From Candidatus Aenigmatarchaeota archaeon (GTDB lineage Archaea; Aenigmatarchaeota; Aenigmatarchaeia; QMZP01), in assembly GCA_015520105.1 (NCBI GenBank), contig WAQT01000033.1:1-39598 (forward strand): 39,598 nt of DNA. Reading direction: 5' to 3'. A program made the translations under genes and the position numbers. This document shows, piece after piece, positions 18,634 to 36,089 of this stretch (within the stretch, counting starts at the first letter, position 1; each line of letters begins with the position of its first letter). The notes under the pieces were generated by a model. It made no database searches. It was given only the letters and a program-made list of their open reading frames with translations, and had not been told where the DNA came from.

Positions 18634-18746
18634 GGGCCCGTAGCTCAATCGGATGCCTGCCGGCGTATTTGGCGGTGCCGGTTTTCCGGGAATAGAGCGC
18701 TCGGCTTCGGACCGAGAGGTTGGGGGTTCGAGTCCTCCCGGGCTCA
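18634..18746 (+). tRNA. tRNA-Arg(UCG) with a ~39-nt D-loop intron (approx. 18655-18693)
   Basis: Acceptor GGGCCCG/CGGGCTC, D stem GCTC/GAGC interrupted by an insert, anticodon arm CTCGG-CT-TCG-GA-CCGAG, T arm GGGGG-TTCGAGT-CCTCC; CCA not encoded. Confidence 0.92.
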
Positions 18747-33653: not shown

Positions 33654-34475
33654 CTATTTCAGCGTCTTTTCGGGGTTCTCTCCCCTCCACCAGAAGCTGT
33701 CGTAATAAGAGCGGAACATCCTGACGAGTATCGGGTTTCCTGTGACGAGGCACTGATAGGAGAAAAGCTCATCGCTCCCCGGTTTTCCGTAGTAATCCTT
33801 CTCGTTCACTCCCGGCTTCGGTATCTTGGAGACCAGATAGAGGAGCTTTCCGTCTATCATCGCTCCCATCAGCCCTTTCATCTCCCAGCCGCGGACCTTT
33901 ATTCCAGAGGAGAGGGCCTTTTTTGCCGTGTTCATGGTGTGCTCGTTCAGGTTTATCAGTATCTTCACAGTCCTTCCGCTCCTGCATGTGAGCGATTTCT
34001 CTATCCTGTCGTACCAGCTCAGGTCGTCGCTGAACACCAGTATCTCCCTTTTTGCCTTTCTCATGACCTCGTTTATTTTGGCCAGTATGTTCTCCCTTCC
34101 ATTCAGAATCCACACGGTCTCGGTCTCCTCCTCAAGCGGGTTGTCTGGCGGCGCAGGAACGGAATCCTTTATCCTTTTGATTATCTCCGACGACTTCTCG
34201 AGCTCCCTCTCCATCTTCCTTCTCTTCTCATCGAGAATGTTCCTCAGGGAATCAACAGATATTATGCTGTATTTCTTCGGCCTGCTTTTCTGGACTATCA
34301 CGAGACCTCTCTTCTCAAGGCTGTCCAGCGTCTCGTAAACCCGTGTCACGGGTATGCCTGATAACTTGCTCACCGCATCGGCAGTGCTTGTCCCGTTCTT
34401 CAGGAGCGTCAGCCATGCCTTTGCTTCATACTCCTTCATTCCGATTTCCCTGAGAAGCGGCTCTATGTCTTTCAT
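33654..34475 (-). CDS. TrmB family transcriptional regulator
   Basis: IGMKEYEAKAWLTLL...SGIPVTRVYETLDSLEKRGLV...SRPKKY wHTH, coiled coil and C-terminal PLD-like sensing domain. Confidence 0.9.
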   Translation of the reverse strand: MKDIEPLLREIGMKEYEAKAWLTLLKNGTSTADAVSKLSGIPVTRVYETLDSLEKRGLVIVQKSRPKKYSIISVDSLRNILDEKRRKMERELEKSSEIIKRIKDSVPAPPDNPLEEETETVWILNGRENILAKINEVMRKAKREILVFSDDLSWYDRIEKSLTCRSGRTVKILINLNEHTMNTAKKALSSGIKVRGWEMKGLMGAMIDGKLLYLVSKIPKPGVNEKDYYGKPGSDELFSYQCLVTGNPILVRMFRSYYDSFWWRGENPEKTLK

Positions 34476-34501
34476 ACAATCCGCCGTTAATCCGTTGGTT
34501 A

Positions 34502-34804
34502 TGAGCCCGGAGGGATTCCCGTTTCATGGTTTAACCCGTTTATAGGTTAACCATGCCGCATGTCCATTTGCTGCATGTTTTTGCTCCACCGCTTTTTGAA
34601 GAAGGCGGAAGCCTCTCGTAAAAAGCGGTGTTTCGAACCCTCGACACCCGGGTTTCTTCTGTCATCGAGCCCTTTGCGGGACTTTCCCTGCGGAAGCGTC
34701 TCTCCGAAAGGCTCTTCACACGCTTTTAATGACATTAAAAGCTTCACCCGGCGGCTTCGCTCGAAGCCCTGTCCGGTGCTCTAACCAGACTGAGCTACGG
34801 GCCC
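34502..34804 (-). tRNA. tRNA-Lys(UUU) with three introns (30/31, 37/38, 59/60)
   Basis: Exons 34804-34773, 34742-34736, 34653-34632 and 34515-34502 join into a 75-nt cloverleaf GGGCCCGTAGCTCAGTCTGGTTAGAGCACCGGGCTTTTAACCCGGGTGTCGAGGGTTCGAATCCCTCCGGGCTCA; BHB-like junctions. Confidence 0.88.
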
Positions 34805-34835
34805 ATAAAGACGCATGACCGCGGCACAGCCGGCA

Positions 34836-35068
34836 CGCCCTGGGCGGGATTTCCCTCTACACTATCCGGTAACCGGTGTCCGGTTAACCTCAATTAAAGG
34901 GGATGATAGTGCGGTAAGAAGGGGAAATGTGTTCCCCTTCTTGCGCTTCGAACCCGCGTCCTGGGAGTTCAGCAAACCTTTCGGAAGGCGGAAGCCTCCT
35001 TTTTGATGAAACTTTTTTCCAAAAAGTTTCTGACAGTCCCAGATGCTAGGCCACTACACTACCAGAGC
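34836..35068 (-). tRNA. tRNA-Asp(GUC) with two introns (37/38, ~59/60)
   Basis: Exons 35068-35031, 34967-34947 and 34849-34836 join into a 73-nt cloverleaf: acceptor GCTCTGG/CCAGGGC, anticodon arm TGGGA-CT-GTC-AC-TCCCA, T arm GCGGG-TTCGAAT-CCCGC. Confidence 0.88.
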
Positions 35069-35234
35069 TTTCGCGGTCCGCGGCCCGCGTCGCCTATTAA
35101 TAGGCGTTCCGGTATTTAAAGGTATCCGGCGTATTTATAAAATTAACTGGGCTAACCGGTTACCGGTTAATTCATTCTGCATCAGGTTTGCCTGCCGGAG
35201 CCAAACCATTTATTAACAGGCCCGAATTATATTC

Positions 35235-36089
35235 ATGCTGTTCTGGATTCTTCTCTCCATCGGCATTGCGGGCTTCGGTCTTGCGGCCTACTGGGACCTG
35301 AAGACCACGGAATTCCCGGACTGGCTTCCGTACTCCATGATAGGCCTTGGCCTCGGAGCAAGAGTCGTCTTCTCCCTCCTGACAGGAGAGTGGCGGTTTC
35401 TTGTCAACTCCATGGTGTTCGGCCTCGCGTTCCTGGGAATGGGCCTTGCGATGTATTTCATGAGGCAGTGGGGAGACGGGGACGCGTGGCTTCTCGGAGC
35501 GCTCGGGTTTTTGTTCCCGGACAGCGCCGGCTATTCCATCCCGCACGCCGGGCTGACAGCGCAATTTCCCTTCCCTCTAGTTCTGCTCTTCAACTTCTTC
35601 ATCACAGCGTTCTGCTACCTGATAGCTTATTCCATCGCTCTCGGAGCGAAGAACCGAAAAAAGACAAGAAAATTCCTCTCTGAACTCAGGAGCGGTCTCA
35701 AAGGAATACTATCCATAGTTGCCCTGTTCACAGTCGCCTCCACGGTTGTTGTCCTCTACCTCTCTCTCTTCCTTCGCGCAGGCCTGAATGCAACGCTCCC
35801 CATTCTCCTGTTTCCCGGGCTTGTGTTTTTCATGACAGTGTTCATGCGCTACGGAAGGTTCGTGGAGGCCAACCTGTTCAGAAAGAGGATTCCGGTCGGA
35901 AGGCTCAGGCCCGGCGACGTCCTCGTATCGGACAGGTGGAGGGGAATCACGGAGAAGGAGATCGAGAAGCTCAGGAGGAAGGGAGGCCACGTCTGGATAA
36001 AGGAGGGAGTCCGGTTCGCTCCGGTCTTCCTGATAACGATTCTGGTAACGCTGTTTTACGGAAACCTGATGGGGATGTTTCTGATATAG
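35235..36089 (+). CDS. A24 family prepilin/prearchaellin peptidase
   Basis: AYWDLKTTEFPD (first catalytic Asp), WGDGDAWLL (second Asp), C-terminal VRFAPVFL. Confidence 0.88.
   Translation: MLFWILLSIGIAGFGLAAYWDLKTTEFPDWLPYSMIGLGLGARVVFSLLTGEWRFLVNSMVFGLAFLGMGLAMYFMRQWGDGDAWLLGALGFLFPDSAGYSIPHAGLTAQFPFPLVLLFNFFITAFCYLIAYSIALGAKNRKKTRKFLSELRSGLKGILSIVALFTVASTVVVLYLSLFLRAGLNATLPILLFPGLVFFMTVFMRYGRFVEANLFRKRIPVGRLRPGDVLVSDRWRGITEKEIEKLRRKGGHVWIKEGVRFAPVFLITILVTLFYGNLMGMFLI
36025..36074 (+). repeat. 50-bp direct repeat, copy 1 (inside the peptidase 3' end)
   Basis: TCTTCCTGATAACGATTCTGGTAACGCTGTTTTACGGAAACCTGATGGGG, identical to 36848-36897. Confidence 0.92.

Follow-up and report, generated by a model that had tools for sequence, protein, structure and literature searches.

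Do introns move between the tRNA genes of a small archaeal genome, and if so, in what form? The question is raised by a contig of 39,598 nt from a Candidatus Aenigmatarchaeota archaeon (WAQT01000033.1, assembly GCA_015520105.1; "the window" hereafter means this whole stretch), in which neighbouring genes for tRNA-Asp and tRNA-Lys are interrupted by five introns, and two of these introns, one in each gene, share an identical 15-nt sequence, GAGGCTTCCGCCTTC (the 15-mer). The original prediction for this locus, made from the sequence alone, read the identity as the trace of a mobile intron or repeat family. We find that the 15-mer forms the stem-loop at the tip of a modular hairpin cassette, and that it recurs in further introns of the same genome and of its relatives. 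The cassettes probably constitute a modular repeat family that lives in, and spreads between, introns with bulge-helix-bulge (BHB) splice motifs, where they would be tolerated by a splicing endonuclease of the epsilon2 type.

The genome from which the window comes (G000 below, with the window as contig C33; C-numbers denote its contigs, L-numbers loci and G-numbers genomes) comprises 796,626 bases in 66 contigs, has a GC content of 0.50 and is 87.8% complete. The comparison set consisted of 91 genomes of the order (relatives of 0.5-1.9 Mb); G001 is a genome of the same genus.

Two interrupted tRNA genes and a shared 15-mer

The tRNA genes were annotated by hand and with a split-tRNA finder, the inserts were removed in silico and the products were given to ARAGORN. 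Unspliced, both genes are missed by ARAGORN (run on the window) and by Rfam (run on the window, and on 34300-35300 up to E 10). With the five inserts removed (two from Asp, three from Lys), ARAGORN calls both tRNAs, as a tRNA-Asp gtc of 73 nt, the exons of which are the same in the G001 ortholog, and a tRNA-Lys ttt of 75 nt, the 3′ exon of which was located by pattern. The two genes proposed in the original prediction are therefore real; they are more interrupted than had been proposed, and the Lys 3′ exon (34515-34502) lies about 70 bases past the left boundary of 34581 that had been given for the region. The features of the locus are the following.

34836-35068, minus strand: tRNA-Asp(GTC) gene with two introns; exons 35068-35031, 34967-34947 and 34849-34836 (last base = discriminator)
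34968-35030, minus strand: Asp anticodon-loop intron at 37/38, 63 nt; BHB with central helix 3/4, outer helix 5 bp, inner helix 8 bp
34984-34998, minus strand: copy 2 of the 15-mer, exact match; 5-bp stem, UUCC loop
34850-34946, minus strand: Asp T-loop intron at 59/60, 97 nt; central helix 3/4, T-stem 5 bp, inner helix 0; member of a multi-copy family
34502-34804, minus strand: tRNA-Lys(TTT) gene with three introns; exons 34804-34772, 34741-34736, 34653-34632 and 34515-34502
34742-34771, minus strand: Lys intron 1 at 31/32 or 32/33, 30 nt; small GGCUUCG/CGAAGCC hairpin; removal needed to restore the tRNA; position kept in G001
34654-34735, minus strand: Lys anticodon intron at 37/38, 82 nt; central helix 4/4, inner helix 7 bp; carries the third motif
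34702-34690, minus strand: third motif, GAGACGCTTCCGC, matching part of the 15-mer at 12/13, within the Lys anticodon intron
34516-34631, minus strand: Lys T-loop intron at 59/60, 116 nt; central helix 4/4 (UUCG with CGGG), bulges AA/A and AA/U, T-stem 5 bp, inner helix 0
34578-34630 (pattern match 34578-34626), minus strand: type A module in the Lys T-loop intron; 11-bp stem CACCGCUUUUU/AAAAAGCGGUG, apical 15-mer hairpin, tail GAGCAAAAA
34601-34615, minus strand: copy 1 of the 15-mer, exact match; tip of the type A module

When the introns were tested for the BHB motif or its relaxed helix-bulge-helix (hBH) form (two 3-nt bulges and a 4-bp helix), four of the five passed, both anticodon introns with an inner helix of 7-8 bp and both T-loop introns as the relaxed hBH kind. 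The 15-mer has exactly two matches without mismatch in the window, both on the minus strand, in the 59/60 intron of tRNA-Lys(UUU) and the 37/38 intron of tRNA-Asp(GUC), where they had been reported. Read from the sequence, it forms a hairpin, GAGGC-UUCC-GCCUU, that is, a 5-bp stem closed by a UUCC loop. In the Lys intron the 11-bp stem below this tip starts one base past the 5′ splice site, and the whole hairpin is present in the minimum-energy fold (z = -4.1); the Asp 37/38 intron consists, in order, of a first hairpin (GAAACUUUUU/AAAAAGUUUC), the 15-mer hairpin and a 3′ strand that is also able to pair with the 5′ end. The hairpins of U-runs with A-runs that had been noticed in both introns are present as well, as CACCGCTTTTT...AAAAAGCGGTG in Lys, where GAGCAAAAAC follows the stem, and as GAAACTTTTT-GG-AAAAAAGTTTC followed by ATCAAAAAGG in Asp. 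The third motif held up only in part: the match at 12 of 13 positions exists, but it is weak, as the common part is only GCTTCCGC, one strand of a GGAG/CUUCC-type stem. This 8-mer occurs 83 times in G000, and RNAfold places the third motif in a different local fold.

Could the 15-nt identity be a chance match or a low-complexity artefact? Both copies do lie in T/A-rich, hairpin-rich sequence, and the third motif reaches its 12/13 with a common 8-mer. Against this, exact 15-mer pairs are expected at about 7e-5 in the ~390 nt of intron, and G000 as a whole holds six exact 15-mers and ten copies of the 10-mer core GGCTTCCGCC, of which about 1.5 would be expected on both strands for a random 10-mer. 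Furthermore, related copies in other genera always stand at the same structural place. The claim that the match is not accidental is thus borne out by the genome-wide copy numbers of the 15-mer and its core, and we give chance next to no weight.

A modular hairpin cassette and its copies in one genome

The modules follow one plan, namely a basal stem ending in U4-5/A4-5, a variable apical hairpin (often GGAG...CUUCC) and a short purine-rich tail, and they come in two types. Type A reads NNNNGCUUUU(U) - tip - (A)AAAAGCNNNN followed by GRGCARAAA(C). Type B reads NNACCCUUU(U) - tip - (A)AAAGCGUNN followed by ACGGAAA, and the middle C of its ACCC always stands opposite a C. Each module is a single hairpin; the bases that precede it vary (AA, GA, GC, AC) and pair with the 3′ strand, and no fixed insertion target was seen next to the modules in the flanks read. 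Tips that differ in sequence keep their pairing within G000 (GGGAGC-UAAC-GCUUCC, GGGAGU-UUAC-ACUUCC, GGAGGC-UUCC-GCCUUCC), and type A modules of other genera carry GAGGCU(C/U)(C/A)CGCCUUC at the same structural place.

The stems covary. In 18 type A copies (G000 and nine relatives), 99% of the 195 cells of the outer 11-bp stem are paired, and three pairs change on both sides, with CG/AU/UA/GC at pair 1 and CG/AU/GC at pair 4; the covariation score was matched in 0 of 500 shuffles, with slid controls 37-70% paired. For type B, 86 copies were taken from titled records of many archaea, and in 86/86 and 84/86 of them the two positions preceding ACCC form pairs with the two variable ones that follow GCGU, with four pair types in use, while slid controls give Watson-Crick pairs in 33/86 and 17/86; these figures are counts and not probabilities, because the sequences are related and pattern-selected. 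A second strand complementary to the 5′ end is present in the Asp anticodon introns of G000, G022 and G054 and in the 5S rRNA introns described below. An extra strand pairing with the type B 5′ strand (AAGGGU plus two bases) was considered as a general component and rejected: the 8-mer was seen in 1 of 84 copies on either side, downstream and upstream alike, and the 6-mer in 9 downstream vs 4 upstream.

Searches with Rfam 15 gave no family over the modules, whether in the window at gathering threshold, in 34300-35300 to E 10, in 20 repeat loci to E 1 or in three 5S rRNA loci; the matches in those scans were to tRNA and 5S rRNA only, none covering a module. A guide RNA of the C/D or H/ACA class was likewise rejected, with no Rfam match and, by inspection, a lone CUGA at the 3′ end of the Asp intron and internal loops of 1-4 nt. 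In another part of the window, ARAGORN calls an uninterrupted tRNA-Arg(tcg) at 18675-18746, and the whole-window Rfam scan at gathering threshold returned no tRNA.

By exact pattern, G000 contains 8 type A and 19 distinct type B modules. At least 14 of these 27 lie within the spans of the 22 tRNA genes returned by the split-tRNA finder (ARAGORN adds about 7 uninterrupted ones), spans that together make up 0.84% of the genome, and all 14 are on the tRNA strand. Among the 13 modules outside the spans, one is in a 5S rRNA gene and eight lie close to the end of a contig, at which tRNA genes are truncated. T-loop introns, 37-389 nt long, are present in 19 of the 22 genes, and they are shared between tRNAs. 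BLAST finds segments 80-100% identical to the Asp T-loop intron of the window in eight other places, in the T-loop introns of tRNAs with different acceptor stems (C39, 100% over 54 nt; C6, 94% over 64 nt; C58; C10, two; C32; C27; C55), and the Lys T-loop intron shares its first 60 nt at 85% identity with the T-loop intron of a different tRNA at C10:28522, and at 82-83% with copies on C22 and C32. G000 thus carries introns of more than 70% identity in genes for different tRNAs.

A larger unit, a composite of about 300 nt made up of a type B module and three further units, is present in 11 copies in G000, located in anticodon-loop, variable-arm and T-loop introns, in the trailer of a tRNA-Ser and in intergenic DNA. 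A 23-mer of the composite is identical in 10 G000 copies; G001 has it three times with 2 mismatches, G024 three times with 3, and the other 88 genomes of the order lack it. This distribution points to a recent, lineage-specific amplification. On C47, C30 and C22 the host of the composite is another module or T-loop intron unit, into whose apical GGCUUC(CGCC) hairpin it is inserted; an intact copy of that host lies close by in the same locus, and the 3′ end of the composite repeats GCUUCCGC. Nesting of cassettes recurs at the apical GGCUUCCGC loop and yields introns within the 37-389 nt range, so that the 15-mer is both the recurrent tip and the nesting place. Taken together, whole introns and the composite are common to different tRNAs and positions at 80-100% identity, and the repeat-family idea with which the locus was first described is upheld in substance: the motif does occur in other introns and repeat contexts.

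Direct repeats flank some copies. At C47:9560-9953 a composite lies just past a coding sequence, between the two copies of a 33-bp direct repeat that holds the last codons and the stop codon, and the reading frame is accordingly intact; shorter flanking repeats were noted at L064 (23 nt) and L078 (12-13 nt). Two further kinds of repeat were observed. Palindromes of the GGTTAACC type (GGTTAACCGATAGTGCAA, GTTAACCGGTAAC and similar) recur in many T-loop introns and in Asp/Lys gene spacers, in the window at 34865-34890, 34528-34555 and 35141-35165. A second, unrelated family in G000 consists of ~90-nt tandem units (...CGCCTTATGACTTGAAACC...GACAGTTACGGAGAC - hairpin - GTCCAACTCAC) with up to 22 self-matches, located beside genes at C7:3886-4772, C6:10462-10650 and C12:4065-4330, on C12 directly upstream of a tRNA.

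In a self-comparison of G000, multi-copy repeats showed up at about 40 loci, each 200-600 bases long, and many of these loci stand at contig ends. Assemblies break at repeats of this family, in keeping with the number of G000 contigs that end in them. DNA contigs of four sequencing runs uphold the assembly on both sides of one repeat. Across 34907-34926 of the window, within the multi-copy Asp T-loop intron, the best-covering run has no single public contig that bridges the segment; longer contigs end on each side, and coverage is by 52-67-base pieces only. A low-depth variant contig with changes within the Asp 15-mer was also seen, as was one contig joint with 47 letters in place of 34655-34774, from another organism or strain; no inference was drawn from either.

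Turnover in relatives, 5S rRNA genes and distant archaea

The Asp-Lys pair is syntenic in G001. There, tRNA-Asp has a 21-nt anticodon intron and no T-loop intron, and in tRNA-Lys all three intron positions are kept, the introns having conserved ends and different interiors; this holds for the anticodon intron, where the middle differs, and the T-loop intron is only 22 nt long and unrelated in sequence. The 15-mer is absent from both genes of G001. Conservation in orthologous introns, a point raised in the original prediction, is therefore not what was found. Instead, the introns turn over. Among seven genomes of the family, tRNA-Asp has no intron in G057, G010 and G070, one (in the anticodon loop) in G001 and G022, and two in G054 and G000, a difference in presence at orthologous sites. 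The Asp 37/38 intron has the same architecture in G000, G022 and G054, with the 5′ strand, its hairpin partner and the second downstream partner changing together. The Asp T-loop intron is missing from G001, G057, G010, G070 and G022, and G054 has a different one, with a type B-like module.

In the order as a whole, type B was found in 45 of the 91 genomes, with 0-20 copies each and most in G000 (a reversed-pattern control gave 0 in all), and type A in 11 of the 91. Module sequences identical to matches in these genomes are also present in records titled Candidatus Aenigmatarchaeota. Across species-representative genomes the type B pattern occurs in at least 113 stretches, and among the matches listed the record titles name Micrarchaeota, Aenigmatarchaeota, Nanoarchaeota, Altiarchaeota, Iainarchaeum, Thermoplasmata, ANME-1/Methanophagales and others. 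Five non-DPANN genomes have 1-7 exact type B copies each. Of the 86 type B copies whose context was read, 14 stand directly after a T-loop and 9 just after a tRNA 3′ end, the remainder lying in 5S rRNA, in arrays, in introns of the D-loop, the anticodon loop and elsewhere and, in ANME-1, immediately behind the stop codons of unrelated genes. Beside T-loops the orientation is 14 sense vs 2 antisense. In three relatives (L043, L047, L050) type B lies antisense in the tRNA-Lys anticodon intron, next to a conserved UCGAUGACAGAA intron end; the antisense copies seen are these three and the two adjacent to T-loops only, and the two sets may overlap. At L081, L091 and L054, which include copies after tRNA 3′ ends and in ANME-1, a purine tract after the ACGG tail mirrors the purine strand of the hairpin (AAAAGAAAG ... 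GAAAGAAAA). This mirror-image arrangement, noticed by eye in just a few asymmetric cases, is compatible with a triple helix on either strand.

Modules also occur in 5S rRNA genes. In G000, at about 7703-7455 on the minus strand of C22 (L181), loop C of the 5S rRNA is apparently interrupted by two module-bearing inserts, one separating CCCAU from UUCGAA, the other UUCGAA from CACGGAAG, and Rfam gives no 5S rRNA match in this genome; further apparently interrupted 5S loci were seen at L152 (1459-1652) and L112 (5895-5719). In G064 and G017 the 5S model rises above threshold only by skipping an insert of 82 nt and 62 nt, respectively, at the same place. The module of the 5S insert is of type A in G064 and G065 and of type B in G000 and G017. 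The insertion sites in the T-loop and in 5S loop C both follow UUCGAA. No paper on introns in 5S rRNA was found in our literature search; nor was one describing the module family, when the motif letters and the tRNA introns of DPANN archaea were searched for in literature that did not extend to supplementary intron tables.

This distribution brings in the main rival explanation, namely that the module is a selected functional RNA motif, which might aid folding or cleavage of the intron, serve as a protein site or have a role in the excised, circular intron. The type B base (NNACCCUUU...AAAGCGUNN and ACGGAAA) is kept almost letter for letter across phyla, including the C.C mismatch that is never compensated, while the tip varies, and in this it looks more like a selected RNA motif than a decaying repeat. 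Covariation at the two free base pairs of that base, the survival of the GGAG/CUUCC tip pairing through C-G to U-A changes, the orientation bias (14 to 2 at T-loops, and 14 of 14 for the modules within tRNA spans of G000), the low copy number outside the DPANN archaea and the module at the same 5S loop-C site in several genera all speak for selection. Set against these are the introns of the same genes in close relatives that lack the module, the 46 of 91 genomes of the order without an exact copy, and the copies in unrelated contexts, including the three antisense ones in Lys introns; moreover, no Rfam family (C/D and H/ACA included) is matched, and inspection shows neither C/D boxes nor an internal loop large enough to serve as a pseudouridylation pocket. 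We consider selection as the sole explanation doubtful, well behind spread between introns, and the two can coexist.

Splicing enzymes, routes of spread and biological meaning

G000 encodes one splicing endonuclease, EndA, of 420 amino acids (L146:1198-2460, minus strand), with PF01974 (E = 4e-26) and PF02778, and its best solved relative is 4fz2_A (E = 8e-98, residues 35-420), which we take to be the structure of the fourth (epsilon2) EndA type, from Ca. Micrarchaeum acidiphilum. An RtcB ligase is also encoded (E = 6e-162). The epsilon2 EndA of Ca. Micrarchaeum acidiphilum cuts strict and relaxed motifs in vitro, including a relaxed hBH intron at 59/60, according to the portion of that study used here (PMC3239211). 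Searches of G000 for mobilising enzymes gave 0 matches to the Y1 transposase family PF01797 (control positive in 6/14 genomes), 0 to the TnpB-type domain PF07282 (control positive in 8/14 genomes) and no reverse transcriptase (positive controls matched).

The account that we favour, with moderate confidence, is accordingly one of a modular repeat family in BHB introns. The cassettes sit in introns of stable-RNA genes where the flanks would form a BHB or relaxed hBH motif; a three-unit, epsilon2-like endonuclease together with RtcB would cut them out of the RNA, as judged from sequence, and since EndA and RtcB should remove such introns, insertions there would cost the host little. Copying would then take place at the DNA level, preferably by ectopic recombination or gene conversion between introns, with homology provided by the near-invariant tRNA flanks (GGTTCGAA and TCCC around 59/60) and by short motifs such as GCTTCCGC, and no dedicated transposase would be needed. 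As a proposal, copying between introns by way of the T-arm flanks would explain the dominance of position 59/60, the kept orientation and the fact that no transposase is seen.

Several points weigh against this account. The module censuses were made by exact pattern, so that they undercount and are shaped by the pattern. Lys intron 1, with a central helix of 1/4, is not recognized by our simple BHB test. Module copies also stand outside introns, after tRNA 3′ ends, after the stops of unrelated ANME-1 genes and in intergenic DNA. The covariation of the stem strands could partly stem from copying rather than from selection for pairing. The lack of a mobilising enzyme fits recombination, yet it could also be expected from a genome that is 87.8% complete. 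The near-identity of the type B base across phyla, discussed above, belongs here too.

A second rival holds that the modules are miniature DNA transposons, resembling miniature inverted-repeat transposable elements (MITEs) or repetitive extragenic palindromes (REP) and derived, for example, from IS200/IS605 elements, which are moved by a transposase in trans and survive where they insert into introns. The original prediction had likened the hairpins to palindromes near IS200/IS605-type ends. A hairpin with a short conserved tail, the direct repeats at some copies (33 bp at C47, 23 nt at L064, 12-13 nt at L078), the lineage-specific burst of identical copies and the intergenic location of some of them would suit such elements. 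However, neither a Y1 transposase nor a TnpB-type domain nor a reverse transcriptase was found in the 87.8% complete G000, with positive controls; the flanking repeats vary in length and are absent at most copies; the elements almost always lie on the tRNA strand; tips differ within one genome, unlike those of MITE copies; and searches of 50,697 phage records, 72,556 plasmid records and a viral contig collection gave no match to the modules. The IS200/IS605 link is not supported by these results, and we regard a transposon origin as unlikely.

The tails suggest yet another route. They are complementary to the most conserved segments of tRNA, in type B to the UUCG of the T-loop and in type A (GAGC) to the GCUC of the D-stem, and the 3′ ends of true T-loop introns resemble the type B tail (ACGGAAA, ACGGGAA and ACGAGAA, each followed by U). 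An excised intron might therefore pair with a new site, enter it by reversal of the endonuclease and ligase steps and be fixed by reverse transcription. The sense orientation and the position of both T-loop and 5S loop-C sites after UUCGAA would agree with spread at the RNA level. That no reverse transcriptase was found in G000, and that only 14 of the 86 cross-phylum copies lie beside a T-loop, argues against it, as does the spacing of the tail: in all 14 T-loop cases read, 8-20 more bases stand between tail and exon, because of which the module tail was also rejected as a working 3′ splice site. We know of no established case of reverse splicing by an endonuclease/RtcB pair, and consider this route highly improbable, more so than a transposon.

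How does a repeat family in BHB introns compare with what is known? Transposition of introns among the tRNA genes of Thermoproteales has reportedly been described (Sugahara in 2008, Fujishima in 2010), and whole introns common to different tRNAs were the signature that defined it. In the part of a recent census that we draw on, 28.3% of 272 introns of Thermoproteales belong to families of at least 80% identity across tRNA types, vs 1.5% of 1,062 introns in Asgard lineages, for which that part reports no general route of intron gain (bioRxiv 10.64898/2026.10.13.758758). Like the introns of Thermoproteales, those of G000 are BHB introns at non-canonical positions, form families of more than 70-80% identity in different tRNA types, are gained and lost, and meet an endonuclease of broad specificity; short introns are typical of that pattern. 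Unlike them, they occur in a DPANN-type small genome with an epsilon2-like enzyme, in place of the (alpha-beta)2 enzyme of Crenarchaeota, and are long (to 389 nt in the T-loop), modular and nested, with one module base conserved across phyla and with modules also in 5S rRNA, tRNA trailers and intergenic DNA. ARMAN-2 (Ca. Micrarchaeum acidiphilum) shares the three-unit endonuclease, many relaxed-hBH introns at 59/60 and interruption of more than half of the tRNA genes, but its introns are short (13 and 25 nt in assays), and the part of the study used here describes no repeat family or common hairpin module (PMC3239211). Asgard introns, as far as the cited part of the census goes, are similar in being many per tRNA, in their BHB-compatible sites and in being missed by standard callers; copying between tRNA types is almost absent there, whereas intron families common to several tRNAs dominate in G000. 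With MITEs, REP and IS200/IS605-derived palindromes the cassettes have in common that they are short, multi-copy hairpin repeats with lineage-specific bursts; they differ from them in that no cognate transposase was found, and in their variable tips, strand bias and concentration in sequence predicted to be spliced out. A C/D box small RNA is carried in the archaeal tRNA-Trp intron, and like such intron-encoded guides the modules are structured RNAs in tRNA introns that could act after excision; unlike them, they lack, by inspection, C, D or ACA boxes where these would have to stand, and they match no Rfam family. The kind of system is thus already known, since families of tRNA introns have been described in archaea whose splicing endonuclease is of broad specificity. 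The novelty lies in the lineage, in the modular and nested build, in the module base common to several phyla and in the presence in 5S rRNA.

A further idea is put forward more tentatively. The type B base with its invariant C.C mismatch, together with its type A cousin, may be a previously undescribed RNA element of archaea, a portable intron core that is used across phyla at any BHB-competent site (T-loop, D-loop, anticodon loop or 5S loop C), its tail mimicking the half of the 3′ splice site that pairs with UUCG in the T-loop or GCUC in the D-stem. If true, this would be the first mobile element whose neutrality depends on the tRNA splicing of its host, and it would give a handle on the gain of tRNA introns in archaea.

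As regards the origin of non-canonical tRNA introns, the one accepted example of copying between tRNA genes, as presented in the part of the census cited, is that of Thermoproteales (bioRxiv 10.64898/2026.10.13.758758). G000 offers a much clearer case: a few recognizable cassettes interrupt most of its tRNA genes and apparently its 5S rRNA gene, some of them exist in fresh identical copies, nesting takes place at a defined hairpin tip, and close relatives lack the cassettes. Given that ARAGORN and Rfam miss both tRNA genes of the window, and Rfam the 5S rRNA of the genome, such lineages may look poor in tRNA genes when standard callers are used. A clear cassette system with cassette-free relatives makes intron gain testable, by means of sister genomes and of assays with a single endonuclease.

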